Source: Candidatus Lokiarchaeum ossiferum
GTDB lineage: Archaea; Asgardarchaeota; Lokiarchaeia; Sigyniarchaeales; Promethearchaeaceae
Direction of reading: 5' to 3'
NCBI GenBank assembly: GCA_025839675.1
Contig: CP104013.1
Coordinates: 1,500,001 to 1,532,000 of the forward strand
Length of the DNA: 32,000 nt
The position numbers and the translations under genes were made by a program. This document shows positions 1,989 through 19,178 of this stretch, piece by piece (within the stretch, counting starts at the first letter, position 1; each line of letters opens with the position of its first letter). A model generated the notes under the pieces. That model was not told the origin of the DNA. It searched no databases and was given only the letters and a program-made list of their open reading frames with translations.

Positions 1989-2249
1989 CTAATAGGGAAG
2001 TTTTTTCAATTCCTTAAATAATTTGTAAAAATTTCTTTGAAACGAATATGCAACAGGAATAGCGAGCATATCAGGATGTTTTTTAAAATCCATAGAGTAT
2101 GTCAAAGGGTGAACCATTTCAGCAAGGGGAGCGTTGTGATCATTAATAAGAGCAGAAGGTGAATTACTTGCCATAAATTTTACAAAAGTATCATGATTAA
2201 GGGAATTGGGAGTTTTGTCTGCTGATTTGAGATTATTAATTTCGCTCAT
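1989..2249 (-). CDS. Hypothetical small protein (86 aa)
   Basis: Open frame with an ATG start that fills the gap between the PfkB kinase and the protein kinase gene. I recognise no motif. It is divergent from the kinase operon. Confidence 0.4.
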   Translation of the reverse strand: MSEINNLKSADKTPNSLNHDTFVKFMASNSPSALINDHNAPLAEMVHPLTYSMDFKKHPDMLAIPVAYSFQRNFYKLFKELKKLPY

Positions 2250-2338
2250 AGTGAGTACTCTGTTTTTCTAGTATTTGAGTTTTTTTTTATGATGGATGCA
2301 AATTTTTTTAGCAATTAAGGGCAAATATAAATTAGCTG

Positions 2339-4261
2339 ATGTCTTCAAATCCAAAACACTATTTTAAATGTACTAAGTGCAATAGTCTATATATCTTTGA
2401 AAATGATAATCCTATTAAATGCAGCAAGTGTAATGATACGAATTTTCAAAAAATGGAAGGGCGGTTCATACTTAGATGCAGAAAATGTGGGTTAACTCAA
2501 AATAAAAGTGCATTTAATCAACTCCACGGTCAGGAACCTCTTCAATGCCAATCAACGACTTGTCATGGACTTATAAAAGTAATTGAACTAGGAAGAAGAA
2601 AGAAGCAACAAATTGTGAAAGAAACTAGCCCTGAAAATGCATTTGTTTCGAGAAAGAAACAAAATTCTTCAGCAGTGCAACCTTCGGTACCTACCCGGAG
2701 AACTTTACCGAGTAAATCGAGTGAAGATACAGGATTACCTTTCCCAAAACCAAAAGAAACTCAAAATGTGCCTGAATCTCATCCAATTATCAAGAAGGAT
2801 CAATTTTCTCCATTCCCCCAAAAAGAGAAAGATTTAAAGAAACTTGAGAAATCTGCAGGACCTGCAGAAAAAGATCACCCTGGGATTAAGGAGGGAGATA
2901 ATCTTAGGTTAAAAGATGATTTTTATGAAATAACGACAAAATTGGGTACGGGAGGAATGGGTTCTGTTTGGAGTGCCCGAAATCTAACCACAAACAAGAA
3001 AGTTGCAATTAAAGAATTTTATTATAGTAGATTTCATGATCCAGAGTCAGGAAATAATTTTTGTGAGAAATACTGGACCCGAGAAGCAACAATTACTAAA
3101 ATTCAAAGCGATTCACCCGAAGCAACTATGCATTTTATCGGATCCTTAAAACTCGAGAATTTTAGAAATCCCGAATATTACATCTTTTTGGAATACATCG
3201 AAGGAACTGTTTTTGACTCATGGTATAATAATAAATTTAAAGATCTAAAAAATTTAAGCGTAAAAGAACTCAGAATCATAATCAAGGATGTTTTAATGCC
3301 AATTGCTCGACATATGTACTTTGTCCACCAAAAAGGAATTGTTCATCGAGATTTGACTGTCCAAAACATCATGATAGTTAAAAAAAGCAGATATTCTGAT
3401 GAAGAAGTCAAACCCGTTATAATTGATTGGGGTGTTGCTAAAAATGTGGGAGTTAATAATATGTTTCAACCCCGAAAACCTTATTATATATCTTCCGCAC
3501 CAGAAGCAACAGGAATTCGAAATAGAGGAACCCCTCCCGAAGTAATGGCAGGATTTGAACCGATAGCTGCAACCGACATTTATATGTTGGGACATATTAT
3601 GTTTTATATCTTCAGTGGAGGACATTATGCAGGAGCCGCTGCAACAAACGAAGATTTTGTACTTCATCCTGGTGATTTCAATCCAGATTTGCCTTCTGAC
3701 TTTTCAAGATTGGTAGAATTTATGACTCAATACGAACCTGCCGATCGAATGGAAAACATGGTCAAGGTTTATGATGCATTAAATTATTTATATAATTCTT
3801 CTGAAACGATTGAAAATCCCAACTTGGCAAAAACAAAACAAAAACAATATTTCCTTTATTGTGATTATAACGAATGTTTTATCCCGTTGCCAGAAGGACA
3901 AATCGTACAATTAGGTAGGGACGAAATCATTGCTGCGGGGACCGAACATTCGATGGATGGACATCTATATAATGCTTTAATACCTATTGAAGGGGATAAA
4001 TTCATGTTTGAGATCTTTATCAATGAGGGATATGCATTCATTCGAGATTTTCATTCGAAATTGGGATCTTTTATATGTCAATTAACAACCACGAATCAAC
4101 AAGTGTATGATAATATTAGTATAAAGGGATTAGATAACGTCAGTATACAGCTTTCAGAGGCAAATCTCGGAACTACTCGAATCGAAGTCCCTTTTCTGGC
4201 ACCAGATGGAATAACATATCGGATAGAATTCAAAATTTATGCAAAGGAGGAATCCCAATGA
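2339..4261 (+). CDS. Hanks-type Ser/Thr protein kinase with two N-terminal zinc ribbons, a P/S/K-rich linker and a C-terminal FHA-like domain
   Basis: 640 aa. Zinc ribbon 1 is C11-x2-C14...C28-x2-C31 and zinc ribbon 2 is C47-x2-C50...C70-x4-C75-H (nt 2369-2563). The low-complexity linker lies at about aa 104-188. The kinase core (nt 2921-3795) has the glycine loop LGTGGMGSVW, the VAIK lysine (KVAIKEF), the catalytic loop HRDLTVQNIM, DWG in place of DFG, GTPPEV in place of APE, and ATDIYMLGHIMF. The tail (nt 3848-4258) reads ...IVQLGRDEII...FEIFINEGYAFIRDFHSKLGSFI, which resembles the FHA pattern (GR ... D.gS.NGt) but is degenerate. Confidence 0.9.
   Translation: MSSNPKHYFKCTKCNSLYIFENDNPIKCSKCNDTNFQKMEGRFILRCRKCGLTQNKSAFNQLHGQEPLQCQSTTCHGLIKVIELGRRKKQQIVKETSPENAFVSRKKQNSSAVQPSVPTRRTLPSKSSEDTGLPFPKPKETQNVPESHPIIKKDQFSPFPQKEKDLKKLEKSAGPAEKDHPGIKEGDNLRLKDDFYEITTKLGTGGMGSVWSARNLTTNKKVAIKEFYYSRFHDPESGNNFCEKYWTREATITKIQSDSPEATMHFIGSLKLENFRNPEYYIFLEYIEGTVFDSWYNNKFKDLKNLSVKELRIIIKDVLMPIARHMYFVHQKGIVHRDLTVQNIMIVKKSRYSDEEVKPVIIDWGVAKNVGVNNMFQPRKPYYISSAPEATGIRNRGTPPEVMAGFEPIAATDIYMLGHIMFYIFSGGHYAGAAATNEDFVLHPGDFNPDLPSDFSRLVEFMTQYEPADRMENMVKVYDALNYLYNSSETIENPNLAKTKQKQYFLYCDYNECFIPLPEGQIVQLGRDEIIAAGTEHSMDGHLYNALIPIEGDKFMFEIFINEGYAFIRDFHSKLGSFICQLTTTNQQVYDNISIKGLDNVSIQLSEANLGTTRIEVPFLAPDGITYRIEFKIYAKEESQ
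4244..4250 (+). promoter_or_regulatory. Shine-Dalgarno site (AAGGAGG) for the phosphatase gene, inside the kinase 3' end; the ATGA start/stop overlap at 4258-4261 suggests translational coupling
   Basis: The sequence gcAAGGAGGaatcccaATGA places GGAGG 7 nt upstream of the ATG at 4258. The kinase stop TGA (4259-4261) overlaps that ATG. Confidence 0.6.
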
Positions 4262-5397
4262 GTACAAATAATGAATTTTCCGAAGAAAATCATTTGCGAG
4301 ACTTATTATATTCCTTAGCAAAGCAAGAAGTTCCTGAATATGTATTCCAGTGGTTCTTTCGATATTTTGCAAAGGGTACCGAGTTTTTTAAGGCGGAACC
4401 TCACGATTTATTAGAAAACTATAGCGCACTTCTTTCCACAGCAAAAATCATGTTAGATCATAGGTACAATAATGGCTCCTACTCAAAAATAATTCACGAT
4501 ACACATACTCCAGACTGGAATTATTACTTCATCGGGGACACACATGGCAGTTTTGATGATACGTATCTAATGATAGATTATTTTATTCGAGTATTTCAAG
4601 TAAATCCGAATATAAAGATAATATGGTTAGGTGATTACGTTGATCGAAATCCCTTTGATCTACAAAATTTAGCATTTATTGTTGCATTTTGGATTTTATT
4701 TCCAAATAATGTATTTTTACTCAGGGGAAACCACGAAGATGCATCTGTGTGCAGCAGATATGGCTTCTCGCAACATCTCTACGAAAAAGCAGGGTCGAAA
4801 GATTACTTTAATCCAATTTGGGATCAAGTAAATCAATTTTTTAGCCATCTTCCATTAGGATTTAGAACTCAAATTGGGGAAAAAAAAATACTTGCAGTCC
4901 ACGGAGGTATTCCCTTCGATACAAAGGATTATAAACCAATTAAACTCGAACAAGGAGGGAGTAATCTAAATTGTTTTCAAACAGAACATTTTGATATGGA
5001 TGTGTTTTCCCAAACGATTCTATGGGCGGATCCAGACCCAATAAATTTAACAACCGGAGTTGCCCCCACCCCACGAACAGGAAGACCGAGGTTTAGTTAT
5101 CAAGCTTTTAATGATTTTATGGAACTTAATCAATTTGATATTTTAATTCGAGGGCATGAAAAATTCTCAAACGGTTACAGTTTATTATGGGATAAACGTC
5201 TCATATCACTCTTTAGCACTTCAACATATGATGGGAGAAAGATTGGGGAAGCCAAGTTCCTCCGGATTCAACCAAATACAAAACGAAAAGATATAGAGAA
5301 TGAAGAATTAAACCAAGGTATCGGAATATTAGCAATAAAAGAATATTTCCTTGAAAATCAATTGGATAAATATTACAATGCAAAAACGGAGTTTTAA
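4258..5397 (+). CDS. PPP-family Ser/Thr protein phosphatase (PP1-arch-like calcineurin-fold metallophosphoesterase)
   Basis: 379 aa. It carries the PPP motifs FIGDTHGSFDD (GDxHG), LGDYVDRNPF (GDxVDR), LRGNHED (GNHE), AVHGG, ILWADPDP and IRGHE. It overlaps the kinase gene by 4 nt. Confidence 0.9.
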   Translation: MSTNNEFSEENHLRDLLYSLAKQEVPEYVFQWFFRYFAKGTEFFKAEPHDLLENYSALLSTAKIMLDHRYNNGSYSKIIHDTHTPDWNYYFIGDTHGSFDDTYLMIDYFIRVFQVNPNIKIIWLGDYVDRNPFDLQNLAFIVAFWILFPNNVFLLRGNHEDASVCSRYGFSQHLYEKAGSKDYFNPIWDQVNQFFSHLPLGFRTQIGEKKILAVHGGIPFDTKDYKPIKLEQGGSNLNCFQTEHFDMDVFSQTILWADPDPINLTTGVAPTPRTGRPRFSYQAFNDFMELNQFDILIRGHEKFSNGYSLLWDKRLISLFSTSTYDGRKIGEAKFLRIQPNTKRKDIENEELNQGIGILAIKEYFLENQLDKYYNAKTEF

Positions 5398-5400
5398 ATC

Positions 5401-6093
5401 ATGGTAAGTTTTAGTATTACCTATATTTTTCATATTATGACAACGCTTGCAGGATTAACAAGTTCTGTGTTCATTTTAAAGAAAGATTCAAAATATTTAG
5501 GAAATCAATTTATGGCTTCAGCCACAGGATTAATGGGGATTTATACCTTTTGCATTTTTATATATGATATTTTGGCCAATGAAGCTCTAACATTGATTTT
5601 GTTACCGATTGGAATGGTTTGTGTTTTAATTGGAACCATGTTGATTTATTTTGCAATGCAGTGCATGGTGAATTCAGCAGTTTGGTTTAAAAAGCATAAA
5701 GAATGGTTAATTTATGCATTCCTTGTTGGAACAATTGGAATTGTTTTCATTATTTTTGCAGATCGATTTATCACCTTTGAAGCACCCGATGAACTGGGAG
5801 GCAATATTAATGTTCATTTAAGTCTTTATGCGCTACTAGTTATAGCAAGTTTAATGCTCTATTTTATGTTCCGGAGCATAATTTACTTAATTCGACATGG
5901 TATTAGAAAAACTGATGGAGCTAGAAGGAAAAAAATGATCATTTTTGCTTGTGGTTTAGGAATTTGTATTTTATCTCTATTTATTAATGCTGGGAGTCAG
6001 TTTGCATCAGGAGTAATTTTAGATGTTCTAACATATTTAGTTTTGTCCATTGGTGTATCAATTACCAGTTTTGGCTTTTTAAAACGAATCTAA
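5401..6093 (+). CDS. Seven-transmembrane membrane protein with no soluble domain (hypothetical)
   Basis: 230 aa. Its ATG lies 3 nt after the phosphatase stop. I count seven hydrophobic segments at about aa 4-25, 37-58, 63-88, 102-121, 140-164, 179-198 and 205-227. The loops are short and basic (KKDSKY, WFKKHKE, RHGIRKTDGARRKK). Confidence 0.75.
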   Translation: MVSFSITYIFHIMTTLAGLTSSVFILKKDSKYLGNQFMASATGLMGIYTFCIFIYDILANEALTLILLPIGMVCVLIGTMLIYFAMQCMVNSAVWFKKHKEWLIYAFLVGTIGIVFIIFADRFITFEAPDELGGNINVHLSLYALLVIASLMLYFMFRSIIYLIRHGIRKTDGARRKKMIIFACGLGICILSLFINAGSQFASGVILDVLTYLVLSIGVSITSFGFLKRI

Positions 6094-6197
6094 AACAGAT
6101 TTTAACCCAAACGATTTGATTTTGTGATTTTTTTTCATAATTTTCCATCAACCGAATGATATTTATTCAAAGCGATTTAATTTTAGTATGATAAAAA

Positions 6198-7925
6198 ATG
6201 GGATACAAATTTCGATCTACCCTAACAATTGGATTGTTGTATGGGATGCTATTTGTTTTAATACTTGCAGTAGATTTTTTTCTCCCAGATGATATTTATA
6301 TCTTTTCCCCACTTATGATTGCTATCTTAAGTTGTATAGGAATCTTCTTTCAATACTTGATATCTCCTTTAATTATAGGATGGATATATCGCATTGAGTG
6401 GGTAGATTATAATCGACTGGAACAAAATGATCCCCATATCGCCCAATTAATCCAAAATGTTTGTCAAAAGTATAATTTCAAATTGCCTAAATTTGGTGTT
6501 ATTCATGGGGGAACACCCAATGCATTTACATATGGATGGACTCGCAATTCAGCCCGTTTAGTAATTACGGATGGCATTTTAGAGTTATTAAATGCAGAAG
6601 AGCAACGAGCAGTCGTAGCTCATGAACTAGGGCATATTGAACACAATGATTTTATTGTAATGACATTTGTTAGTGCCATTCCGGTAATGTTTTACACCAT
6701 TTTTCGATTGTTGACTAATTCCTATCGATATAGACGATTTACCAGTGTTAAACCATCTAGAGGATCATCTGATGACAACAAGTATGCGCAATATATTCTG
6801 CTTATTAAAATCGGATTAGCCATAGTCAGTTATATCATGTATATCGTAGGATATTTTCTGTCATTATTCATAAGTCGATTACGAGAATATTATGCCGATG
6901 AATTTTCAGGAAAAGAAACAGCGGATCCCAATTCCTTAGCGACCGCTTTGGTCAAAATAGCCTATGGAATTTTGCAAGAACCGGAAAAAGGACAAAAAAC
7001 ATTTAATGACAAAAATCAATATGTGAAAGCCCTTGGAATTTTTGACAAAAATTCTGCGAAAAATTTAGCCTATTCCGCCACAAATGGTAGCGGAAAGATA
7101 GATAATACCCTACTTGCACGCGCCTGTGCTTGGGATTTATATCAACCATGGGCAAAGTTTGCTGAAATCACTTCAACCCACCCACTTCCTGCAAAACGAA
7201 TAAAACAATTGAGCTATATGAGTTTTAAAGAATTTAAAAAGCCGCCAAAGGTAGATCTTTCTCAGGCAAAGGTTGAATTTGAAAAACAAATGGGAAAATC
7301 TGCATTGGATGAATTTTTCGGTGAATTATTAATTTACATCATGCCTAAATTGATCTTCTGGACATGGTTAATCGTAGGAGGTATCTTATTCATAGCCAAT
7401 TTTGATATCACAACCTTTTCCCCCCTCTTTAATGGATATTGGTCTTTTATGGTCTTTAGTTTGGTGTTAGCAGGAATTTTCCAACTAATTCAGAATGCAT
7501 TTAAATATAAAAGTGGTTTTAAAGAACATAAAATTGTTGATTTAATTGGAACAATTAAAGTGAGCCCAATTCGACCTGTTCCAACAATTACAAAAGGTTT
7601 TGTTATAGGAAGGGGAGTACCAGGACTTTTTTGGTCGGAGGATGTTGTAGTAAGGGATGAAAAAGGAATCATGTTCATTGATTATGATTTTGGAATAGGG
7701 TTTATCAACACATTGTTTGGAATCTTCAAAGCGGAAAAATTAAAAGGGAAAGATGTGGAAATTACCGGATGGTATCGCAGAAATCCAAGTCCTTATATCC
7801 AAGTTCATAAAATTAAACTATTGGATGGGTCAGGAAAATCCTTTGGAAATTATAAGCGAGCATTTTGGCAATTTGTGGGGATATTCCTTATCGCTTTAGG
7901 TGGAATTCTCTGGTTTTTACTATAA
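6198..7925 (+). CDS. htpX: M48-family zinc metalloprotease (HtpX-like) with a C-terminal extension of about 220 aa containing extra TM segments and a beta-rich domain
   Basis: 575 aa. It has N-terminal TM segments, the HExxH motif in VAHELGHIEHND, the third ligand region SRLREYYADEFSG and the STHPLPAKRIKQL motif, all as in HtpX. After about aa 350 there are four further hydrophobic segments in two groups (about aa 376-399 and 411-433, then one at the extreme C-terminus), with a Gly/Val/Ile-rich soluble region (KVSPIRPVPTITKGFVIGRGVPGLFWSEDVVVRDEKGIMFIDYDFG...) between the last two. Confidence 0.9.
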   Translation: MGYKFRSTLTIGLLYGMLFVLILAVDFFLPDDIYIFSPLMIAILSCIGIFFQYLISPLIIGWIYRIEWVDYNRLEQNDPHIAQLIQNVCQKYNFKLPKFGVIHGGTPNAFTYGWTRNSARLVITDGILELLNAEEQRAVVAHELGHIEHNDFIVMTFVSAIPVMFYTIFRLLTNSYRYRRFTSVKPSRGSSDDNKYAQYILLIKIGLAIVSYIMYIVGYFLSLFISRLREYYADEFSGKETADPNSLATALVKIAYGILQEPEKGQKTFNDKNQYVKALGIFDKNSAKNLAYSATNGSGKIDNTLLARACAWDLYQPWAKFAEITSTHPLPAKRIKQLSYMSFKEFKKPPKVDLSQAKVEFEKQMGKSALDEFFGELLIYIMPKLIFWTWLIVGGILFIANFDITTFSPLFNGYWSFMVFSLVLAGIFQLIQNAFKYKSGFKEHKIVDLIGTIKVSPIRPVPTITKGFVIGRGVPGLFWSEDVVVRDEKGIMFIDYDFGIGFINTLFGIFKAEKLKGKDVEITGWYRRNPSPYIQVHKIKLLDGSGKSFGNYKRAFWQFVGIFLIALGGILWFLL

Positions 7926-8406: not shown

Positions 8407-11400
8407 ATGCGAAAAATTGATTTTTATTGGAAAAAATCGTGGTCTGACCAAAAAAAAAATTTAGCAATTATCATCTGTGTTAGTTTTGCCTTAGCGATGA
8501 TATCGGGCTTTTCATTTTTCTATGAATCGGTTCAAAACTATAATTTCGAAAAATCTTTTACTCAGTCAAGCGATTTTTCAATTTATCATGCACCTCAACA
8601 AAATGCTGACGGGCAGTTTATTTCCCCATTGAATTTTGCTGAATATTCAAACATTACAAAACCAGGGGTAGAAAAAGCATTTTCCTCTACAGATCTGGAT
8701 GTCACAGGATATTATAATTTTGCATCCATAACTCATGGTGAAGCTTTTTTTTCAGTAAAAAATATCAGTCGATTTACCTCAAAAGGATATAACTCTGGAT
8801 TTAATTTCTTAAGTGATACAAATGCTACCGGATTCCAATACATTTTAGCAGAAGATGATTTCTACAAATCTGAACGATTTAACGATTATTTCATCATAAT
8901 CGAAGGAGAAAGTCCAAATTCTGACAATGAAATATTAGTTGATTACCAATTTGCAAGAAAATTCGACTTACGAGTAAATGAAATCTCCAATATCACAACG
9001 ATGATAGGGGCTATATGGCCGGGCACACCTTTAAATATCAATTATCAAGAATTTATTATGGAAAATATAACAATTTCGGGCATTTATTTGCCAAAAGATA
9101 ATTTAATTGGATTTAACAACTTGAATTTCAGATATTCCTATACCTATCAAAATTATGTAGATGAGGTAGTTCCATCAGATGACTTCACTTTTGAATCACC
9201 TGGAACATTTTCCTACTACAATTTCTCAGGAACTGATCTAAATCATCCTGTCCAACAACATTTTTCACAGATTGCAGCCGATACCGATGCTTCGAGATAT
9301 TTAAGATCAACAAATATTGTATCTGGCTATTCCTTATTTTTTAATAGAGCGGCAATCAAATTTGAAACGATAAGCCACCAAAAAACCATAATTTCGCAAC
9401 ATGCCTTTGATTTTTCTTTAAATTTACCTTTAGCAGTTGTGTTTAATGATAATCTAGGATTATTTTTACAAGAACAAGCAAATTCATCAAGGTTAGAAAA
9501 ATACTTATTTCAAATTTTTAATCTACCCTTTATAATTTTTGCCGGAATGATTAGTAAAAAACAATTAAACAGATATTATGATAACCAAAAAGAAGAAATT
9601 TTGATTTTACAAGGAAGAGGAATTTCAAAGTCCATTTTGAATACACAGATTAAATATAGTGCATTTCTAAGGAGTTTTATTACCAGTATAATTGGCACAT
9701 CCTTTGGATGTGTTTTCTTTTTTGGATATAAAAAAATCTTGGGAAATGTCCTAATTATTGGACAAAACGCACAAATATTACCCTTTATTACAGTATCCGA
9801 TCTATTCCTCACATTTTTGGTTAGTCTTGCAATAAATTTCGCAGCGACTATTTCAATAATTCAAAAAATAAAAAAACAAGATTTATCTAAAATTGCTGCA
9901 TCCATGAAAATTGAAGATTTATCATCTGATTTTGATGAAAATAAATTGTTTGGAAAAGAGAAAGAAGGAGAAAAACTAAAAAAATTTGCTCAAAACTTAG
10001 AACACGATAAGAACCAGAAGAAATACCATAAAAAAACACAAAAACGAAAGAAAAAACAAAAGAAAAATGAAATTTTTGAAGAAAATGCAGGAGATTTCTT
10101 TAACAATCGAATCAAACCCACATCAATTCTTCAGATCTGCGTGGGTTTGCTACCTTTGATATTGCTATTTATTATATTTTTAGGAAACAATATCAGCCTT
10201 CCAGACAGTTTAATTGATTTAACTTACAATCTTGAGCAATTAATTCCAGGCATAATATTACTTTGTTTCATCTGTTTAGGACAACTCGTTTCTGGAATAG
10301 GAAAAATATTCTTTTTAGAAAGACCAAAAATATTCAGTAAACTCGCTAAAAGAATTTCGAGGGTGTTTTTACAAGATTTGGATATGTTCATATCAACAAA
10401 TTTAGTAAAAAAGAAACAATGGGGAGAAATTGCGAGTTATCTTAGTATTTTTATTGCATTATTAGTTGCAAGCAATATTAACTATTCTTCTACTCAAACC
10501 TACGAATTTTCAATGAACAATTATTTGGTTGGAGCGGATTTGAGATTGGAAATCACAACTCACAATTTTACTTCAATGGAGAATATTCAAGAATTTGAAG
10601 AAAATCTAACGAATTTTCGCGTGAGTAATCGAAAATTGGTTAATGAGGTCGTTTCCTGTTTCACTTCAAGTTCACAAATCCAAACGACAGTGGGAGGAGT
10701 AAATGTATCTGTCAGTTTGCCTATCTATACACTAGATCTTCAAAAATATGAGAAAATTATTACGGAAATGGGTAAACCTGTTCCATATAGCGACTATAAT
10801 AACAAAATATCAGAAATTCAAAATTTTAATACTGAAAATGAAGTTATTGGAGCAATAGTTTCCCCTACAACATTGAGCCGTTTCAATAAAAATATTGGAG
10901 ATCAATTGGAAATCAAAATCCCTATTTATAATAGTTCCACAGATTCTTATTACTATCAGGAATTACAAATAGAATTTATCGAAGTTCTCGATCTGATGCC
11001 CGGTCTATTTTATGATGCAAATGATTTTCACACTAATGAACTGGGAGTCATATTGGACTTGAAATCGATTCCCGTTTCTGATAATGATATAATTGGGAAT
11101 AGCATAATTCAATTGATGGATCTAAAAATCTCTTCAAATAATGACTGGGAATTGATCGAATCAAATCTTATAACAGTTTATGAAAATCAAGCTACTTTTT
11201 TGAATATCTGGACATATAACCAAGATTGGGACGATTTCCAAATAGAAATACATTATTTCGATTTTGGTTCGAGGGGATTTTACAAACTTACGTTTTTGAT
11301 AATTGTTTTGTTAGGAGTATTTATCGGAATTCATTCTGCATTTACAATCCAAAGTGTTTTAGAAGAAGAAAAAACGGAAATCCAGAATTTGTTCAGAGCA

Positions 11401-11910
11401 GGATTTGAAGATAAAAATCTACTAAAGATCGTGATAATTGAAACTTCAATAATGATATTTTTAGCAATACTGGTCGGAGGATTGGTGGGTACGATCTATG
11501 GAACGATACAACATAAACTAACTTTCAATTATGTATTGACAGATCCAGAATTTTTCTATAGTAGCACTGTACACTTTCCAACGAGCATAAATTTATCTTT
11601 ATTAATTGGAGGAATTCTTCCAGTGGTTTGTGCCATTTTCTTGCTTCAACTACTTCTTCTATCAAATAAATGGATTGGAATGAAACGAAAGAATGGGTTG
11701 CAAAACAAAATGAGTGAATTAGCATTAATTAATTGCTTAGCTATAGGTTTAGCCTTACAATTGTTTTTAAAACTTTCAAATGGAATTGCCTTTGGCATGA
11801 TAATCGGAATTATATGGTTTTCAAGTCAGGCGCAAATTCTAAACAAAAAAAATAAAAAAAATCAAAATCAACTTCCAACAAATGTTGTGAAAATAAAGAG
11901 CAAGGCATAA
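8407..11910 (+). CDS. Giant tandem-FtsX/MacB-type (type VII ABC) permease, paralog 1; two (TM - large extracytoplasmic domain - 3 TM FtsX) modules joined by a polybasic linker
   Basis: 1167 aa. It has an N-terminal TM (LAIIICVSFALAMISGFSFF). The MacB periplasmic-domain-like start reads YFIIIEGESPNSDNEILVDYQFARKFDLRVNEISNIT. The FtsX-type segments are ILILQGRGISKSILNTQIKYSAFLRSFITSIIG... and LFRAGFEDKNLLKIVIIETSIMIFLAILVGGLVG. The central linker is ...KKYHKKTQKRKKKQKKNE. Two extra C-terminal TM segments and a K/N-rich tail are absent from paralog 2. Confidence 0.85.
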   Translation: MRKIDFYWKKSWSDQKKNLAIIICVSFALAMISGFSFFYESVQNYNFEKSFTQSSDFSIYHAPQQNADGQFISPLNFAEYSNITKPGVEKAFSSTDLDVTGYYNFASITHGEAFFSVKNISRFTSKGYNSGFNFLSDTNATGFQYILAEDDFYKSERFNDYFIIIEGESPNSDNEILVDYQFARKFDLRVNEISNITTMIGAIWPGTPLNINYQEFIMENITISGIYLPKDNLIGFNNLNFRYSYTYQNYVDEVVPSDDFTFESPGTFSYYNFSGTDLNHPVQQHFSQIAADTDASRYLRSTNIVSGYSLFFNRAAIKFETISHQKTIISQHAFDFSLNLPLAVVFNDNLGLFLQEQANSSRLEKYLFQIFNLPFIIFAGMISKKQLNRYYDNQKEEILILQGRGISKSILNTQIKYSAFLRSFITSIIGTSFGCVFFFGYKKILGNVLIIGQNAQILPFITVSDLFLTFLVSLAINFAATISIIQKIKKQDLSKIAASMKIEDLSSDFDENKLFGKEKEGEKLKKFAQNLEHDKNQKKYHKKTQKRKKKQKKNEIFEENAGDFFNNRIKPTSILQICVGLLPLILLFIIFLGNNISLPDSLIDLTYNLEQLIPGIILLCFICLGQLVSGIGKIFFLERPKIFSKLAKRISRVFLQDLDMFISTNLVKKKQWGEIASYLSIFIALLVASNINYSSTQTYEFSMNNYLVGADLRLEITTHNFTSMENIQEFEENLTNFRVSNRKLVNEVVSCFTSSSQIQTTVGGVNVSVSLPIYTLDLQKYEKIITEMGKPVPYSDYNNKISEIQNFNTENEVIGAIVSPTTLSRFNKNIGDQLEIKIPIYNSSTDSYYYQELQIEFIEVLDLMPGLFYDANDFHTNELGVILDLKSIPVSDNDIIGNSIIQLMDLKISSNNDWELIESNLITVYENQATFLNIWTYNQDWDDFQIEIHYFDFGSRGFYKLTFLIIVLLGVFIGIHSAFTIQSVLEEEKTEIQNLFRAGFEDKNLLKIVIIETSIMIFLAILVGGLVGTIYGTIQHKLTFNYVLTDPEFFYSSTVHFPTSINLSLLIGGILPVVCAIFLLQLLLLSNKWIGMKRKNGLQNKMSELALINCLAIGLALQLFLKLSNGIAFGMIIGIIWFSSQAQILNKKNKKNQNQLPTNVVKIKSKA

Positions 11911-12108: not shown

Positions 12109-15100
12109 ATGAATATTTTAATTTATAAATTAAATCAGGTGAAAATTACAATTCCAAAATATTTTGGTTTTTACTTCAAACACAGTTTATCAAAATTAAA
12201 AAATGAATGGCTCGTTATCATTTGCATTAGCCTCTCTTTATCAATGGTCACGGGATTAAGTTATTTCTTTAAAGCCGCTCAAAAGCATCAATTTGAGAAT
12301 TCATTTTTTACAATGACAGATTTTGAGGTTACTTATTATCCAAAATTTGACAATGGCGGATTAATTCCAAAAATGGATTACTATCAATATTTTCATGACT
12401 CAGAAACCAAAATAAAAAATTCAATTAACAATAGTCCATTAGATTTAAATGGCACATATAAATTCGGACTTTTTGGATGGGGAGCAGGATATGTCGTTCC
12501 ACAATATTGGGATTATCTAAAATTGGAAGACACTTCTGGTATTTTGGATTATGTTAATAAAATAAATGGTTCCAATGTTCAATTTGCATTATTTGAGCAG
12601 GATTTTTATCACTCCCAGCGATTTAATGATTATTTTAAAATTATTGCAGGAACTACCCCTGAAGCTGAAAACGAAGTATTAATGGATTACAATTACGCGA
12701 AGAAATTCAATTTGAACGTGGGAGATATTACAAATATAACAGTCTTAGTTGGAAGAACTCATGATTTGAATCCACCGGTAGGACACTTAATACCTTTTCA
12801 ATCGCCTCCAGTAAAACTGGTAGGAACTTACTTACCGATTAAAGAAGATTACCGAATTAGCCTCCAACGTCTCAAATATAGTTACACTTATTTTGATTAT
12901 CTCGCAAATCGAAGTTTTCCGGAATTTATTGATGAAGTGGACACTCCTGCGATTTTTTCGGCTAAAAATTTTTCAATACCCGGATTTTCACATCCATTCC
13001 AATTATTATATCAAAATATTAATGCGACTGATTTCTACAGAAATTACCTCGTGAATGATAACTTACGATGCGGATACATAATAGCTTATAATAGAGATCA
13101 TATTCAGTTCAATACATTAAATAAGGATAAAACAATAATTGCCCAACAAGCGTGGAACACATCACTTAGTATGCCTTTTGAAGTAAATTTTGTTGATTAT
13201 TTAGCTTTACAATTGAACAGAGTCTATTTAGATTTGATGGAAAGCCATCTCATTATCCAAGTTTTGAATATTCCAATAATCCTTTTTTCAATTCTTATCA
13301 CCCAAAACTTTGTGGCGTCGAATAAAAAGCAAATTAATGAAGAACTATTACTTCTCCGACTTCGGAGTGTTCCATTAAAGACAATAAAATGGCAAATAGT
13401 GATCAGTGCGTTTATTAAGGGACTAATATGTATGATATTAGGTTTACTTGGGGGATTTATTACGTTTTTTGCTTATGAAAATTTCATTGGAATGATTTTT
13501 TTTGATACTGAGAAAGTATTGCTAACCCCTTATTTTGAATGGAATAATGTACTTTCGTCTTTCATTCTTGGAACAATAATGAATGGAATTGCAATTATTC
13601 CGAAATTAATTCAGGCACGAAAACCGAAATATGCTGACATTGCTGCATCTCTATCTCAAGATGATTTAGCTGCTAAGTATGATGAGAGATTATTTTTGGG
13701 AAAAAAAGAAAGAGAATTAACAGAAAAAAATGAATATGACAGTGATAGTAAAAAATTTTTTAAGCGCTATAACATAAAGAAAAAAACTACCAAGAAGAAG
13801 GTCGTTTATTCCGATTTTTATGAAGACGAGAAAAAAAAACGACAATTCTTACCCTATTTACTGATGGGAGTTGGAATAATACCAATAATTTTGAACATAC
13901 TTATAGTTATTAGGTATTCTACAACAGCTTCAGATAGTTTAGTGGATTTAGTTAATATAATGACCTATTCTCTTCAAGCCTTTCAATTTCTTACATTGTT
14001 TGGGATGGCATTTTTTGTTGCTGGATTAGTGAGATTGGTTGTTATTCAAAGACCTTCTCTATTTGCTCGGATATCAAAGCAAATTTCCAAATTATTTGTA
14101 AAGAGGTACGATCACATAGTTGGATTAGAATTAGTGCGACAAAAAAAATGGTCTGGGATTATTACCTATCTGGCAATATTTGCCTCGCTCCTTATAACAA
14201 CAAATATTACATTCAATTCCCAATTTCGTTATGAAACTTTGGAAAGAAACATGTATATTGGCTCCGATTTTCGAGTTGAAATGCAAAATCCATCGTTTGC
14301 ATCATTAGATCAAATTAATTCATTTGAACAACAAATTCTAAATTATTCAGATGCAGACGCAAATCCATATTTTAAGGATTTAACAACATGTTTTGTAGAT
14401 ATTAATTGCACAAGTTATAATTATTTTAACGATCGGATGATAGAAAATTCATTTAACGCTTATATTTTGAATTCAACCGATTATTTAAATATTTTAGAAA
14501 AAAATGAGAAACCTCTTCCCTATCCCGAATTCAAAAATGATATTAAGGAATTGTATTCAGAAAATATGATGTCAAGCAATTCTTCGCTTCCAGCGTTTGT
14601 TTCAAGCCGATTTCTTATTGATTCCAATTCAATTATTGGAGATAAGGTAGAAATTCATCACAAATATTCCAATAACAATACAACAGACTTACAAACTCAA
14701 ATACTACATATCGAGATTATTGGGGTTTTAGATTTTGTGCCAGGATTGTACAATAACTCGGATTTTATTGAGAGTTCAATATTATTGGACATAGGAAATC
14801 TGAATCAATCGGAAAATTTAGTTCATGGGAAAAAAATAATTCAAATACTGTCATTTAATAGCAATTTTGATGTTGGATCAGAGACAGAATATGATAATCT
14901 CCGCATGAAGTATTCCGCTTTTTGTTCGAATATAAGATACGATATATCAGACCCCGATTGGGATGACACATCAAAAGCTATTTTATCTATTCAATACGGT
15001 ACAAGTGGATTTTTTGGATTGGAATATTTAAATTTCACACTTATTGGATTTTTGTTAGTCATAGAATTATCTCTAACAATTATCTTAATAAATCGAGAAA

Positions 15101-15447
15101 ACTCACATTTCAATGGTCTTCTGCTTGCGAGGGGAATAGGCAGAAAAAAAATTTTTCAAATGGAATTAACAGAAACATTTATTGTATTTTTAATTGCATT
15201 TTTAATTGGTTCCATTATCGGAATAGGTTTTAGTTGGATTTTAATCAAGGTTGGACAAATAATTATTCAAAATATAATGGGCAGCACATTTTCCTCTAGT
15301 ACAAATCTTCCTATATTTTGTGATATTGGAAATCTTCTTTCTATTTTCAGTTTACTCATTGTATCATCAATTGCAATCCTTGTTATAAATTATCTCGTGT
15401 CTAAAACAGAAACAATTGAGCAAACAATGGAGAAAGAAATGATCTAA
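12109..15447 (+). CDS. Giant tandem-FtsX/MacB-type permease, paralog 2
   Basis: 1112 aa and alignable with the upstream gene over its whole length. Examples, paralog 2 versus paralog 1: LVIICISLSLSMVTGLSYFFKAAQKHQFENSF versus LAIIICVSFALAMISGFSFFYESVQNYNFEKSF; YFKIIAGTTPEAENEVLMDYNYAKKFNLNVGDITNIT versus YFIIIEGESPNSDNEILVDYQFARKFDLRVNEISNIT; LLARGIGRKKIFQMELTETFIVFLIAFLIGSIIG (FtsX-type). A polybasic linker is also present. Confidence 0.85.
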   Translation: MNILIYKLNQVKITIPKYFGFYFKHSLSKLKNEWLVIICISLSLSMVTGLSYFFKAAQKHQFENSFFTMTDFEVTYYPKFDNGGLIPKMDYYQYFHDSETKIKNSINNSPLDLNGTYKFGLFGWGAGYVVPQYWDYLKLEDTSGILDYVNKINGSNVQFALFEQDFYHSQRFNDYFKIIAGTTPEAENEVLMDYNYAKKFNLNVGDITNITVLVGRTHDLNPPVGHLIPFQSPPVKLVGTYLPIKEDYRISLQRLKYSYTYFDYLANRSFPEFIDEVDTPAIFSAKNFSIPGFSHPFQLLYQNINATDFYRNYLVNDNLRCGYIIAYNRDHIQFNTLNKDKTIIAQQAWNTSLSMPFEVNFVDYLALQLNRVYLDLMESHLIIQVLNIPIILFSILITQNFVASNKKQINEELLLLRLRSVPLKTIKWQIVISAFIKGLICMILGLLGGFITFFAYENFIGMIFFDTEKVLLTPYFEWNNVLSSFILGTIMNGIAIIPKLIQARKPKYADIAASLSQDDLAAKYDERLFLGKKERELTEKNEYDSDSKKFFKRYNIKKKTTKKKVVYSDFYEDEKKKRQFLPYLLMGVGIIPIILNILIVIRYSTTASDSLVDLVNIMTYSLQAFQFLTLFGMAFFVAGLVRLVVIQRPSLFARISKQISKLFVKRYDHIVGLELVRQKKWSGIITYLAIFASLLITTNITFNSQFRYETLERNMYIGSDFRVEMQNPSFASLDQINSFEQQILNYSDADANPYFKDLTTCFVDINCTSYNYFNDRMIENSFNAYILNSTDYLNILEKNEKPLPYPEFKNDIKELYSENMMSSNSSLPAFVSSRFLIDSNSIIGDKVEIHHKYSNNNTTDLQTQILHIEIIGVLDFVPGLYNNSDFIESSILLDIGNLNQSENLVHGKKIIQILSFNSNFDVGSETEYDNLRMKYSAFCSNIRYDISDPDWDDTSKAILSIQYGTSGFFGLEYLNFTLIGFLLVIELSLTIILINRENSHFNGLLLARGIGRKKIFQMELTETFIVFLIAFLIGSIIGIGFSWILIKVGQIIIQNIMGSTFSSSTNLPIFCDIGNLLSIFSLLIVSSIAILVINYLVSKTETIEQTMEKEMI

Positions 15448-15671: not shown

Positions 15672-18600
15672 TTAAATTGTCTTACCACAAAAGAAACAGA
15701 ATTTTTCTTCATTCGTTGGTTGTTTTGCCCCACAACTTTCACATCGATCGATATTTGTTCTTTTAACTGGTCGGTTGATTTGTTGTGAATAACGTTGAAG
15801 TTGTTGGCGAACCAATGAAGAACGAGCTTGATTATTCAAATTTTGTTTAACAACGGGCGGTTTATGGATACGAGCTCTTTTCCTTTTAATAATTTTTCGT
15901 TTATATTCCCGTTTTTCTTTCATTGTTTTAAATTCAGGTAAAATTTCTGCTTCATCTTCTTCAACTGCAGGAACCATGAAAGTAATAGATGTAGCCGTAT
16001 TAAGAGAATCGCCAGTAATTTCTTCGGAAATATCATCTGCTTTTACAAACGTCGTTTTAACTTCAGTTAATTTCTGTTTTTCTTTCTTTTTCTTTTGATT
16101 CTTATCTTTTTCAGTGGGATCAAATTGAAGATGACAGAGCTTAATTAAATCATCTATTTCTTCAACAGTATCTCCGATTTCCAGATAAATAGCTTTTTCT
16201 TTGCACTCTAATAACTCATCATAAATGGATTCTGCTTGTTTTTCTTCAATTATTTCAACGATTTTTGAGATTGAGCTTTTTAATGTTGAAATTTCTGTAT
16301 CAATTTGATTTTGGATTTGTGAACCGGTGGCAGCAATATAATCTCTCATTGGATTAATTATGATCCCTTTGTATTGAGAAATTGCAGTTTGCAACCCATC
16401 CATCATATTTCTCGCTTCAATTACTTTATCTATTTCAATAAACCCTTTCGCTTCTTCTACACTTTCTAACAATTGTTGATGATTTGTGGTTAATTCAATA
16501 TATTTATTAATTTCAGGAATTATTGATTTTACAACAAGTCCTTTGGCTGTTTCAAGCAATTGTTCTAACGAATTACGAGCATCATTAAAATGAAGAACGT
16601 TGATCTCTTTTTTAATAATTGTTTCAAGAGAGTCATTCATTCGACCTTCGCGTTCGCTATTCCCTTGTTTGACTTTCTTATCAAGAGTTTTCAGTACAAT
16701 TTGAACTTGTTCAAATAATTGTTTATCATCTGCGGAAACATTCATAATTTCTTGAATAGATTTTAATGTTTGAGGAAATTCCGTGATTGAATCATAATTA
16801 CGCTCCAATTTTTTACACTTGCTTACAACGGATAGATTGTGTTGACATTGGAGGTTCAAGACGTGTAATTCTTGTTTTAAGGTATTTAATCCCAAACGTT
16901 GAGCGCGAATTTCATAGTTACTCAGTAAATCAATAATTTCAGTAAATTCAAGACTTTTTTTCAGTTTGGCTAAAATGGCTTTATAATCGGATTCAAGCTT
17001 CTCAACTCCATCTTGTAATCCAATTTCAATCTGTCCATGTAAATTGGCAACATTTTCTCGTAAAGATGAACTATAAATCTTTGGATTAGTTTTCAAACCA
17101 CTATCAATTTTATCGAGTAATTTTTTACATTGTTTAAAGGCGTCTTTTATATCCCCTTCACTAAAGATAAGCTGAACTTTATGTATTTCGTCCAAACCTT
17201 CAGAGTTCAGTTTAACTTTTTGAGAAAGGCGTTCAATCCGATCCTGGAATTGCTCTAACCCAGTAAAATTATTTCGAGCAATAATTTCTTGCAAAATAGA
17301 TGTAGATTGATCAATATCGATCGATTCATCTAAGAGTGCATTTATTTGATCTACTTTTTCTTGAAACTTCGATTCTTCTTGAACGATTTTTTGTTCTAAA
17401 TCCTTTTCTAACTTCTTGAATTTATCTTCCAAATTGGAATATATTAGAATATCTGATTTTTCAAGCATATTGCTTATTTTTATTTTCCCTTGAAGAATGC
17501 TACCAAATTTTTCATGAGCCAATTGGTCTTCAAACTGGAGGACTTGCTGAAATACATCAAAATTTTGGTTAAACTCTTTCAAAAAATGTTTATGTTGATC
17601 AAGATATGAATGATATTCTTGTTGTGTTGCAATAATATGTTTCTGTTGAAGAAGAGTATTCACCTCTTCAAAATTCAGTTCAGCCATTAGTTTTGTTTTT
17701 ATCGCAACTAATTCTGATCTAAGTATCTCTTCTCCTTCATCCCGACACTTATTAATCTCTAGGCTAAACTTATCCACTCTTTCTTTGATATTATCGAGTA
17801 AGATTTCTGGTTTTACTTTAGATTCGATTTTTTCAATTAATTGGCGCATTGATTTTTGAGAACTTAAATAATCAGCAGTTTGGAATATTGCTTCAATATC
17901 TAGTAACCTATTGTATAATTCCATATTTATATTACATACATTTTGCTCAACACGAATTTGTTCTATTAAAACAGACATTGAATACTGTTCATATTTCTCA
18001 ACCAATAATTTCATAAGAGAATCCGATTCAACAAATCTGAAATCAGCCATCAATTCTTGAACATAAAGGAGCTGTATTTTAGTTTCATTATTTAATTCTT
18101 CAATCAATGACTCGACTTGTTCCTTAATAACTCGAAATTTGTCGATGGAATTGAAAAAAATAAAATCTGGAAATTGTTCAAGGATCTTTTCAGCTTCTTG
18201 AATCTTTTTCCAAGCGGCAGGAAGATCTTTCCATTTTTTTGCAGCCGCACATAATCGTTTAAACTTGAAGTTTTGATTTTGAATATTTAGCAATTCTTTG
18301 GTATTTCCAATCCAAATTGAAATTTTTTTACTAACATTGAGTTCAGGGAGTTTAATTTGTTTTTCTTGAATATATTCTTCAAACTGGGATTTTATAGCAA
18401 CCATCTTCTCAAGAATCTCTGGATGAATAAGAAAATGTTTGTTTGAGAGTGCTTGCTTGATCTTTAATTTATTTAGTTGGTGATCAATTGTGAAAAATTT
18501 TCGTTCAAGATCAGATTCTGAAATATCGTCGGATATTTTTTCTCCAAACCTTCGTAAAGAACGGATAAGAGAAATGTTCTTCTTTATTTTTAATTTTAAT

Positions 18601-19178
18601 AAATAGTACGGATTAAGTAAATAAACCAATCCATTTTGTGAAATTTTCAAATAGAGAGGTTTCAAATTTTCTTTTGCTTCATCAAATTTTTGGGATTTAA
18701 ACAAAGTTTCAAGTTTATCTATGTCATTTTTAATTTCTTGAGACATATGCTTAATTTGGGATGATACTAACCTCATTTCGTTTGTTAATATTGACACCCT
18801 ATCATCTGAATAAACTATGGGGTGTTTATGAATTAACCGTAAATTAGATGTTAACAACAAACGCGATCGAATTAAATCATCGGTTTTTTTTGAATAATTA
18901 AAATTTAAACGATAAATGGAATCGAAATAGGAATATTTGACTTTATCTAAAAATGATATTTTTGGTTCTCCTTCAGAAGAATCATCAAGCTCTGTATCGA
19001 TTGAAGCATTATCTTCCAATGAATCACCTTCAGGAGCAATTTCTTTAACAAGGGATTTAGATTCTTTAGAGAGTGAAAAATTTTCCTTCAGATTTGCACC
19101 ACACATCGAACAAAATGACTGTGGATCTTCCATTTTAATTGGAGTACCGCAAAACTTACATAGATGAGGATCTGTCAT
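15672..19178 (-). CDS. Giant (1168 aa) helical-repeat / coiled-coil-like protein capped by N- and C-terminal zinc ribbons; no recognisable enzymatic motif
   Basis: ATG start. The N-terminal ribbon is C7-KF-C10...C23-SM-C26 (nt 19101-19160), followed by an acidic Ser/Asp/Glu stretch. About 880 aa of heptad-like, K/E/Q/L/I-rich helical sequence with a periodic motif follows. Next come a polybasic block (KNQKKKKEKQK, KEKREYKRKIIKRKRARIHK) and the C-terminal ribbon C1146-ES-C1149...C1161-FF-C1164 (nt 15687-15743). I found no Walker A/B motif, no TM segment and no signal peptide. Confidence 0.85.
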   Translation of the reverse strand: MTDPHLCKFCGTPIKMEDPQSFCSMCGANLKENFSLSKESKSLVKEIAPEGDSLEDNASIDTELDDSSEGEPKISFLDKVKYSYFDSIYRLNFNYSKKTDDLIRSRLLLTSNLRLIHKHPIVYSDDRVSILTNEMRLVSSQIKHMSQEIKNDIDKLETLFKSQKFDEAKENLKPLYLKISQNGLVYLLNPYYLLKLKIKKNISLIRSLRRFGEKISDDISESDLERKFFTIDHQLNKLKIKQALSNKHFLIHPEILEKMVAIKSQFEEYIQEKQIKLPELNVSKKISIWIGNTKELLNIQNQNFKFKRLCAAAKKWKDLPAAWKKIQEAEKILEQFPDFIFFNSIDKFRVIKEQVESLIEELNNETKIQLLYVQELMADFRFVESDSLMKLLVEKYEQYSMSVLIEQIRVEQNVCNINMELYNRLLDIEAIFQTADYLSSQKSMRQLIEKIESKVKPEILLDNIKERVDKFSLEINKCRDEGEEILRSELVAIKTKLMAELNFEEVNTLLQQKHIIATQQEYHSYLDQHKHFLKEFNQNFDVFQQVLQFEDQLAHEKFGSILQGKIKISNMLEKSDILIYSNLEDKFKKLEKDLEQKIVQEESKFQEKVDQINALLDESIDIDQSTSILQEIIARNNFTGLEQFQDRIERLSQKVKLNSEGLDEIHKVQLIFSEGDIKDAFKQCKKLLDKIDSGLKTNPKIYSSSLRENVANLHGQIEIGLQDGVEKLESDYKAILAKLKKSLEFTEIIDLLSNYEIRAQRLGLNTLKQELHVLNLQCQHNLSVVSKCKKLERNYDSITEFPQTLKSIQEIMNVSADDKQLFEQVQIVLKTLDKKVKQGNSEREGRMNDSLETIIKKEINVLHFNDARNSLEQLLETAKGLVVKSIIPEINKYIELTTNHQQLLESVEEAKGFIEIDKVIEARNMMDGLQTAISQYKGIIINPMRDYIAATGSQIQNQIDTEISTLKSSISKIVEIIEEKQAESIYDELLECKEKAIYLEIGDTVEEIDDLIKLCHLQFDPTEKDKNQKKKKEKQKLTEVKTTFVKADDISEEITGDSLNTATSITFMVPAVEEDEAEILPEFKTMKEKREYKRKIIKRKRARIHKPPVVKQNLNNQARSSLVRQQLQRYSQQINRPVKRTNIDRCESCGAKQPTNEEKFCFFCGKTI
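16128..18125 (-). repeat. Protein-level tandem super-repeat of about 118-123 aa (about 360 nt), at least five copies, inside the giant zinc-ribbon protein
   Basis: Equivalent segments recur at aa 405 (EQIRVEQNVCNINMELYNRLLDIEAIF), 527 (DQHKHFLKEFNQNFDVFQQVLQFEDQL), 645 (QDRIERLSQKVKLNSEGLDEIHKVQLIF), 768 (KQELHVLNLQCQHNLSVVSKCKKLERNY) and 888 (PEINKYIELTTNHQQLLESVEEAKGFI). A second motif is interleaved with them (LNFEEVNTLLQQKHIIATQQEY, LEFTEIIDLLSNYEIRAQRLGL, LHFNDARNSLEQLLETAKGLVV, QAESIYDELLECKEKAIYLEIG). The repeats are degenerate at the DNA level. Confidence 0.5.

Follow-up and report, generated by a model that had tools for sequence, protein, structure and literature searches.

We found that a 32,000-nucleotide (nt) stretch of the genome of Candidatus Lokiarchaeum ossiferum (contig CP104013.1; hereafter the window) carries a gene for a zinc-ribbon Hanks-type Ser/Thr protein kinase directly followed by a gene for a eukaryote-like Ser/Thr phosphatase of the PPP type, and that the same two genes stand together in all 13 distinct loci compared. 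We propose, with a probability of about 0.7, that they form a conserved cytoplasmic phospho-switch of two genes, which in this comparison occurs only in Lokiarchaeia and is accompanied by a divergently encoded small partner gene, and that the third gene of the window locus, for a seven-transmembrane (7-TM) protein, is a lineage-specific add-on. The original prediction, made from the letters of the window, had described the three genes as a membrane-tethered module of writer, possible reader, eraser and membrane partner in a probably archaeal genome. The window kinase shares 100% identity with a protein from L. ossiferum, an Asgard archaeon, which settles the archaeal origin; the proposed three-part membrane signalling module is only partly real.

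To collect comparable loci, exact-protein look-ups were combined with a scan of a genome collection using the kinase alignment, and all open reading frames (ORFs) in the retrieved loci were searched with hidden Markov models (HMMs). In each of the 13 distinct loci, among them those of Promethearchaeum syntrophicum, two Harpocratesius genomes and several metagenome-assembled genomes, the PPP gene comes immediately after the kinase gene, and the gap between the two ranges from -53 to +35 nt. Tight gene spacing by itself is common in compact archaeal genomes; adjacency in every locus, with kinases diverged to about 50-60% identity, exceeds chance. The predicted coupling of kinase and phosphatase was thereby borne out, and gene order suggests that the two form a conserved unit that is probably co-transcribed. 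Moreover, 12 loci extend past the 5' end of the kinase gene, and in 11 of them a homologous divergent ORF of 72-95 amino acids (aa) was identified, in which the motif HPL..Y...P..Y..QR is invariant. This small-ORF family comprises 41 clusters of 72-91 aa with no Pfam domain, the source names of which are Promethearchaeota only. Its product may regulate the kinase-PPP pair or be one of its substrates.

The third position of the locus is variable. The order kinase-PPP-7-TM was found only in the window and in a 90% relative (locus L006), that is, in two Lokiarchaeum genomes, in both of which 3 nt separate the last two genes. The trio, which had been put forward as a module, is thus not syntenic beyond the genus Lokiarchaeum. 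Among the other 11 loci, the PPP gene is followed by a gene for a metallo-beta-lactamase (MBL)-fold protein in the Promethearchaeum-type loci (gap 20 nt), by one for a Bax1-I protein in the Harpocratesius-type loci (69-94 nt), directly by an M48 peptidase gene in L017 (70 nt) and by opposite-strand genes in L005, L021 and L024; in L019 there is no ORF of at least 90 aa in the 342 nt that remain before the contig end. Locus L017 comes from the next-closest relative with a sufficiently long contig. Because it has the order PPP-M48 where Lokiarchaeum has PPP-7TM-M48, the 7-TM gene is most simply explained as an insertion in the Lokiarchaeum lineage. A relationship between the 7-TM protein and the Harpocratesius Bax1-I protein at the same position was rejected, as BLASTP detected no similarity between them.

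The layout of the window locus is given in Table 1. The three genes lie on one strand with essentially no spacing, as had been described. The kinase stop and the phosphatase start share the sequence ATGA at 4258-4261, the Shine-Dalgarno-like AAGGAGG lies 7 nt 5' of the phosphatase ATG, and the phosphatase stop codon TAA (5395-5397) leaves a gap of 3 nt before the ATG of the 7-TM gene. Gene calls on public contigs start the third gene 36 nt later (ATG 5437, 218 aa). The 230-aa form is kept at full length in an 87% relative, and a complete first helix needs the longer form.

Table 1. Features of the kinase-phosphatase locus, numbered from the first nucleotide of the window
Feature	Position	Strand	Basis
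Small ORF, 86 aa, divergent from the kinase gene	1989-2249	-	conserved ORF
Intergenic region, 89 bp, AT-rich, between the divergent small ORF and the kinase gene; putative bidirectional promoter region	2250-2338	.	sequence
Ser/Thr protein kinase, 640 aa: zinc-ribbon motifs, linker, Hanks domain, FHA-like tail	2339-4261	+	Pfam, alignment
Two Cys4 zinc-ribbon-like motifs (C11/C14/C28/C31; C47/C50/C70/C75)	2369-2563	+	alignment pattern
Variable linker, Lys/Arg-, Ser/Thr- and Pro-rich, aa 86-190	2594-2908	+	alignment, composition
Hanks-type catalytic domain, aa 193-497	2915-3829	+	Pfam Pkinase, NCBIfam, motifs
C-terminal FHA-fold domain, divergent, aa 502-637	3842-4249	+	AlphaFold2, Foldseek
AAGGAGG, Shine-Dalgarno-like, within the kinase 3' end	4244-4250	+	
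Eukaryote-like PPP Ser/Thr phosphatase, 379 aa	4258-5397	+	Pfam Metallophos, PDB sequence matches, motifs
Stand-alone 7-TM protein, 230 aa, HisKA_7TM-like	5401-6093	+	AlphaFold2, hydropathy, Pfam comparison
T8 run, 35 nt past the 7-TM stop; candidate archaeal oligo-T terminator	6128-6135	+	sequence

About 30 full-length orthologues of the kinase were identified at 48-90% identity, and all those with a source name are from Promethearchaeota. Residue conservation was read from an alignment of 27 full-length orthologues of 50-90% identity. The catalytic domain matched Pfam Pkinase (PF00069) over aa 196-438 above the gathering score (74.4 bits against a cut-off of 31.7, E=1.2e-20), and a PknB-type NCBIfam model aligned over aa 193-496. 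We recognised the motifs GTGGMG (203), VAIK (222, with K225), HRD (336, with N343), DWG (363), a variant of DFG, and PPE (399), a variant of APE. G203, K225, H336-D338, N343, D363-G365, P399 and E401 are invariant among the orthologues, and the remaining motif positions vary slightly. The catalytic domain is intact, and phosphotransfer activity is predicted. All eight N-terminal cysteines are likewise invariant, with the spacing CxxC-x13-CxxC and CxxC-x19-Cx4C over aa 11-75. By this pattern they would form two zinc ribbons; the Pfam zinc-ribbon match to the N-terminus is marginal (E=0.068). The Hanks kinase with an N-terminal zinc ribbon had thus been recognised correctly. Between the ribbons and the catalytic domain lies a poorly conserved, basic linker rich in Ser, Thr and Pro (16 Ser and Thr, 13 Pro and 23 Lys and Arg over 105 aa), which keeps short PxxPxRR and PFP motifs and which we propose to be disordered. 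No hydrophobic window in the kinase reaches transmembrane level, indicating that it is soluble.

The kinase was also matched by the PADLOC/NCBIfam models mad6, PD-T4-6, MkoA and PglW (E=1e-29 to 1e-12), as a pair acting in anti-virus defence or abortive infection, in the manner of the kinase-containing MADS, PD-T4-6 and BREX PglW systems, would be. We rejected this explanation as highly improbable, since the matches are confined to the generic Hanks domain (aa ~175-505) and fall far under the NCBIfam cut-offs (58.7 bits where 460 are required), PADLOC matched none of the other three products of the locus (PPP, 7-TM protein and small ORF), and the genes around the pair form a chromosomal block (ThiS/SAMP, MBL, large coiled-coil, ZIP and GH38) that is stable across genera, unlike a mobile defence island.

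The C-terminal ~140 residues of the kinase are very strongly conserved among the 27 orthologues. AlphaFold2 with the orthologue alignment modelled aa 490-640 as a beta-sandwich with two short helices, at a predicted local distance difference test score (pLDDT) of 91.8 and a predicted template modelling score (pTM) of 0.84. When this model was compared with the PDB by Foldseek, ranks 1-22 were all FHA domains or FHA-containing proteins. Sulfolobus acidocaldarius ArnA ranked first through its FHA domain (5a8i; E=2.2e-3, probability 1.0, target-normalised template modelling (TM) score 0.61), and further matches were mycobacterial FhaA/Rv0020c, APLF, OdhI/GarA, EmbR, DgcB and Mdb1, followed by SMAD MH2 domains. 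The FHA matches had probabilities of 0.8-1.0 and identities of 12-15%, with target-normalised TM scores of about 0.5-0.6 for isolated FHA-domain chains. The predicted FHA-like tail is therefore borne out at the level of the modelled fold, for which the term is correct.

The tail departs from canonical FHA domains in several respects. No PDB match in the Foldseek search had E<=1e-3. Pfam FHA (PF00498) remained below threshold, with 6 of 18 orthologue tails matching (best E=0.0044) and no match in the window protein at E<=0.1 over the full length or at E<=1 with the tail. A tail-only profile gave a marginal PDB match to ArnA (E=0.54), only over "YIRDLYSKLGTF / YIEDLNSTNGTY", which is the YIxDLxSxxGT strand-loop. 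In the profile alignment, YIRDLYSKLGT of the tail stands against YIEDLNSTNGT of ArnA, so that the Asp, Ser and Gly are kept and the T-N of the FHA S-T-N-G loop is replaced by K-L. Other orthologues have P, V or F in place of the Thr and M, K or Q in place of the Asn. The SxxH motif could not be aligned in the tail, the position of the ArnA His being taken by Ser, Met or Gln. In the FHA protein ST0829 of S. tokodaii, T199 and N200 are essential (PMC5007285). Because the canonical Thr and Asn and an alignable SxxH are missing, the role of phosphothreonine reader that had been assigned to the tail is not established. On the other side, R527, D570 and S573 are invariant and G526 and G576 nearly so. 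Judged by sequence pattern rather than by structural superposition, G526-R527 would be the canonical Gly-Arg between beta3 and beta4, and D570, S573 and G576, like the Gly-Arg, would hold positions of the FHA phosphate-binding loops.

These features bear on a second view of the tail, to which we give somewhat less than an even chance: that it derives from an FHA beta-sandwich, has lost phosphothreonine binding and serves constitutive oligomerisation or substrate docking, leaving a writer and an eraser with no built-in reader. The variable K-L positions, the lost SxxH and the sub-threshold Pfam score fit such a loss of binding, as do the two helices that the model inserts after the GR loop and the additional matches to SMAD MH2 domains, which have the same fold without the FHA signature. 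However, the retained Gly-Arg and phosphate-loop residues argue for binding, a Lys in place of the Thr could still contact phosphate, and fusion to a kinase is the classical context of an FHA domain.

The phosphatase matched Pfam Metallophos above the gathering score (88.4 bits against a cut-off of 21.5, E=1.1e-24). Its closest PDB sequences are eukaryotic, namely BSU1 (6.7e-27), PP1 (~1e-22), and PP5 and PP2A (~1e-20), in agreement with the prediction of a eukaryote-type PPP rather than a PP2C enzyme; the NCBIfam ApaH/PrpA models matched at E ~1e-3 only. We located the PPP motifs GDTHG (93), GDYVDR(N) (125), GNHE (157), HGG (215) and RGH (298), together with the Tyr of the SAPNY equivalent. 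The metal- and phosphate-binding motif residues are invariant in 11 orthologues and in a paralogue encoded in the window, and the last Gly of GDxVDRG is replaced by Asn, or by Ser in the paralogue. The enzyme is intact, with catalytic activity predicted, and hydropathy analysis revealed no credible transmembrane segment in it. It shares its catalytic signature and its closeness to eukaryotic PP1, BSU1, PP5 and PP2A with the Asgard PPPs and the PP1-arch enzymes. Eukaryote-like PPPs of Asgard archaea, near the eukaryotic clade, have been described and archaeal PP1-arch enzymes have been characterised biochemically (PMC8249667), so the PPP is not novel by itself.

The paralogous PPP of the window (22251-23780, - strand, 509 aa) is 37% identical over the catalytic domain and has a Cys-rich N-terminus with several CxxC motifs; it would combine zinc ribbons with a PPP, as a counterpart to the zinc-ribbon kinase. 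BLAST detected no similarity between the zinc-ribbon regions of the two proteins. In L005, a 921-aa zinc-ribbon PPP is encoded 0.8 kb away from the kinase-PPP pair.

The 7-TM protein was predicted by hydropathy and the positive-inside rule to have seven helices, with the N-terminus outside and the C-terminus inside. AlphaFold2 with the family alignment (pLDDT 93.6, pTM 0.91) placed the helices at aa 6-28, 33-58, 61-91, 99-118, 142-170, 174-199 and 205-227, and a beta-hairpin at aa 124-140 in a predicted outer loop. The description of a bare 7-TM protein was thereby confirmed, and no soluble domain is visible in the family alignment, in which P0145 (359 aa) and P0183 (1096 aa) are exceptional in length. 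A word-indexed homologue search returned the protein itself and one 87% relative, as for an orphan; this was overturned by exhaustive phmmer searches, which found 78 cluster representatives, 57 of them at E<=1e-10 and almost all of 220-250 aa. All source names in the family belong to Promethearchaeota, and L. ossiferum itself contributes a paralogue.

With the window protein, Pfam gave no match, neither to a transporter nor to FtsW/RodA, and NCBIfam one non-significant match (E=0.1, 11.6 bits). Among the 50 Foldseek matches listed from the PDB there were only chains of class A or class C G-protein-coupled receptors (GPCRs; E ~1e-4 to 3e-3, TM score 0.42-0.66) and no transporter, so neither search places the family among the well-known transporters. 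We treat the GPCR match, which comes from the model, as generic similarity of seven-helix bundles. A more specific relationship was suggested by the HisKA_7TM profile (PF16927), which 9 of 55 family members matched at E<=0.01 (best 6e-7). The family consensus reached 21.3 bits against a cut-off of 28.6 (E=2.7e-4) in a co-linear alignment of positions 13-225 with 3-215 of the 224 in the profile (213/224 positions), and in UniRef a nearly identical form of the paralogue from L. ossiferum is annotated as HisKA_7TM. The HisKA_7TM sensor domain is known from bacterial histidine kinases. It has also been found in haloarchaeal ones (PMC5847659). The window protein resembles it in its seven helices and about equal length, and differs in standing alone, with no HisKA or HATPase output domain, and in scoring under the Pfam threshold. 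It is best described as a stand-alone, distant, sub-threshold relative of this sensor domain.

We then considered the genomic contexts of the 7-TM family, for which exact-protein look-ups provided six loci including the window. A same-subfamily kinase gene lies just upstream in two of the six, and no kinase or phosphatase is a consistent partner. Outside the window, relatives are encoded after DUF998, after aIF5B, near genes for an acyltransferase, an Arf-like GTPase and an actin homologue, and 0.6 kb 3' of a paralogous leucine-rich repeat (LRR) kinase gene beside an actin homologue (L011/L012); the L. ossiferum paralogue is encoded between dehydrogenase and ribosomal protein genes. In L011 (3633-6702) and L012 (484-3553), an ORF of 112-118 aa separates the 7-TM gene from that of the LRR Hanks kinase P0037, which is 40% identical to the window kinase domain.

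A rival to our reading is that of the original prediction, in which all three genes make up one membrane-anchored module where the 7-TM protein senses and recruits or activates the kinase, the tail reads and the PPP erases. We consider it unlikely. The 3-nt gap kept in both Lokiarchaeum genomes speaks for it, and so do the resemblance to a HisKA_7TM sensor domain and the receptor-like seven-helix bundle, a basic cytoplasmic loop (RHGIRKTDGARRKK) with conserved GIKK..G...KKM motifs as possible docking or phosphorylation sites, the paralogous kinase in L011/L012, and the presence of a membrane protein after the PPP in three lineages (7-TM, Bax1-I or M48). However, the trio is missing in 11/13 loci and Promethearchaeum has a soluble MBL-fold protein at that position, four of the five other 7-TM contexts, that of the L. 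ossiferum paralogue included, have no kinase or phosphatase nearby, and the HisKA_7TM similarity stays under the gathering score. Membrane tethering is unproven, as neither the kinase nor the PPP has a credible transmembrane segment. A related idea is that in Lokiarchaeum a stand-alone seven-helix receptor, GPCR-like and related to HisKA_7TM, signals via a Hanks kinase and a PPP instead of a histidine kinase, with the small ORF product as substrate or regulator. This is a long shot; if true, it would reveal a pathway from a 7-TM receptor to Ser/Thr phosphorylation in Asgard archaea, created by gene insertion beside an ancient kinase-phosphatase switch.

In the two-gene switch that we favour, the kinase would autophosphorylate or phosphorylate targets docked via the zinc ribbons or the tail, and the PPP would reset the phosphorylation state. 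The FHA-fold tail could act in phospho-dependent or constitutive self-association or in substrate recruitment; a role of tail and ribbons in self-association or substrate docking is most likely by analogy with Chk2/Rad53 and with the Sulfolobus zinc finger-FHA protein ArnA. The two genes would be co-transcribed, and in L. ossiferum translationally coupled through the ATGA overlap and the AAGGAGG site, so that writer and eraser would be made together. The 7-TM gene would have been inserted between the phosphatase and M48 genes in the two Lokiarchaeum genomes examined, where it is probably co-transcribed with the pair. From adjacency alone, its product may feed a membrane signal to the pair, and a sensor partner acquired only in Lokiarchaeum is plausible but unproven.

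Besides the departures of the tail from canonical FHA domains, three points weigh against this reading. First, the spacing and junction of the 7-TM gene are conserved in L006, which would also fit a real functional coupling. Second, the 7-TM paralogue near the LRR kinase hints at a recurrent link that may be under-weighted here. Third, the PPP gene of L006 (9920-11059) has two in-frame TAA stops, GAA to TAA at codon 53 and TAC to TAA at codon 70, in a stretch that is locally fast-diverging. Either the gene has decayed to a pseudogene in that population or the stops are an assembly error; if they are real, the kinase-PPP pair is not indispensable.

Parts of this arrangement are familiar from other systems. 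In Chk2 and Rad53, a Hanks kinase and an FHA domain share one polypeptide, as they do here, which suggests phospho-dependent dimerisation and trans-activation; their FHA domain is N-terminal and canonical, whereas the one studied here is C-terminal, divergent and combined with zinc ribbons, and there is no evidence of orthology. A profile from the full-length kinase alignment matched only kinase domains in the PDB, those of Chk2 among them. Kinase-phosphatase operons are commonplace in bacteria (PrkC/PrpC, Stk1/Stp1), where PP2C phosphatases are paired with membrane-spanning PASTA kinases. Archaeal loci of the endosomal sorting complex required for transport (ESCRT) also contain pairs of Ser/Thr kinase and phosphatase genes (PMC10936438). 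In the bacterial operons and the archaeal pairs, as in the window, writer and eraser genes lie side by side on one strand with hardly any space between them, and the bacterial operons differ in that PP2C and a PASTA transmembrane kinase take the place of a eukaryote-like PPP and a soluble kinase. The actinobacterial fhaA-fhaB-pstP-rodA-pbpA-pknA-pknB cluster, to which the locus had been likened, also unites FHA, a phosphatase, a polytopic membrane protein and Hanks kinases. This likeness holds for domain types only. Every defining feature of the cluster that was tested is absent here: it has PP2C, a SEDS/PBP pair with a SEDS glycosyltransferase as the membrane protein, separate FHA proteins and membrane-anchored kinases, its gene order is not comparable, and homology is limited to shared domain superfamilies.

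The archaellum network of Sulfolobus, comprising the ZnF-FHA protein ArnA, Hanks kinases (ArnC/ArnD) and a PP2A-type PPP (PMC6509490, PMC5007285), is also archaeal and has the same domain set of zinc finger or ribbon, FHA, Hanks kinase and PPP. In Sulfolobus these domains are on separate proteins from dispersed loci, whereas here one polypeptide combines ribbons, kinase and FHA fold, and its operon also encodes the PPP. Moreover, ArnA pairs with the vWA protein ArnB; among the genes scanned around the pair, none for a vWA partner was detected. Against the description of the system as not a textbook archaeal one stand the published eukaryote-like PPPs of Asgard archaea (PMC8249667) and archaeal kinase-phosphatase pairs (PMC10936438). 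A full-text literature search found no description of the module or of a PPP orthologous group always coupled to a zinc ribbon-kinase-FHA gene. FHA-kinase fusions, archaeal ZnF-FHA proteins, Asgard eukaryote-like PPPs and kinase-phosphatase operons are thus known, and what we regard as new is the fused architecture of two zinc ribbons, kinase and FHA fold, always paired with the PPP and the small protein (the latter in 11/12 loci) across Lokiarchaeia, together with a 7-TM family named from Promethearchaeota only and distantly HisKA_7TM-like. Both the domain types and the logic of the operon are well established, so that the finding adds to existing categories and creates no new one.

Eukaryotes have no closer known relatives than the Asgard archaea, and to our knowledge experimental work on Asgard signalling is almost nil. 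The locus defines a strictly conserved writer/eraser pair. As it is present in P. syntrophicum and L. ossiferum, the two Lokiarchaeia in culture, the pair offers a tractable way into the study of phospho-signalling in archaea. Its phosphatase is of the type that has been proposed as the origin of eukaryotic PPPs (PMC8249667). The 7-TM family, HisKA_7TM-like and with a GPCR-like fold, is a further candidate class of sensors.

The wider neighbourhood was also surveyed. The G+C content of the window is about 26-36%, and tRNA and Rfam scans of it identified no RNA genes. The T8 run after the 7-TM gene is followed by a separate gene, from 6198 to 7925 (+ strand), for an M48 (HtpX-like) peptidase of 575 aa with a long extra C-terminal membrane region. 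Since an M48 gene lies directly 3' of the PPP gene in L017 and on the opposite strand in L024, it may be an older neighbour of the pair. Two large membrane proteins of 1167 aa (8407-11910, + strand) and 1112 aa (12109-15447, + strand) matched only FtsX-like permease at their C-termini; L006 seems to encode just one of the two, and in L074 a similar 1096-aa FtsX protein is encoded near a 7-TM paralogue. Further downstream (15672-19178, - strand) is the gene for an 1168-aa protein, probably coiled-coil, with CxxC zinc-ribbon motifs at both termini. In Promethearchaeum and Harpocratesius, proteins of 1040-1270 aa at the same convergent position flank the pair and are followed by ZIP and GH38 genes, and a CxxC start was confirmed for at least the Harpocratesius and L021 versions. 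The 1168-aa protein is a candidate conserved partner of the pair. Upstream, L003, L004, L006, L007 and L009 share genes for a ThiS/SAMP-like ubiquitin-like protein of 69 aa and for an MBL-fold protein with a Pfam match of the Anti-Pycsar Apyc1 type, and in Lokiarchaeum an inserted PfkB sugar kinase gene (985-1953) separates this block from the small ORF.

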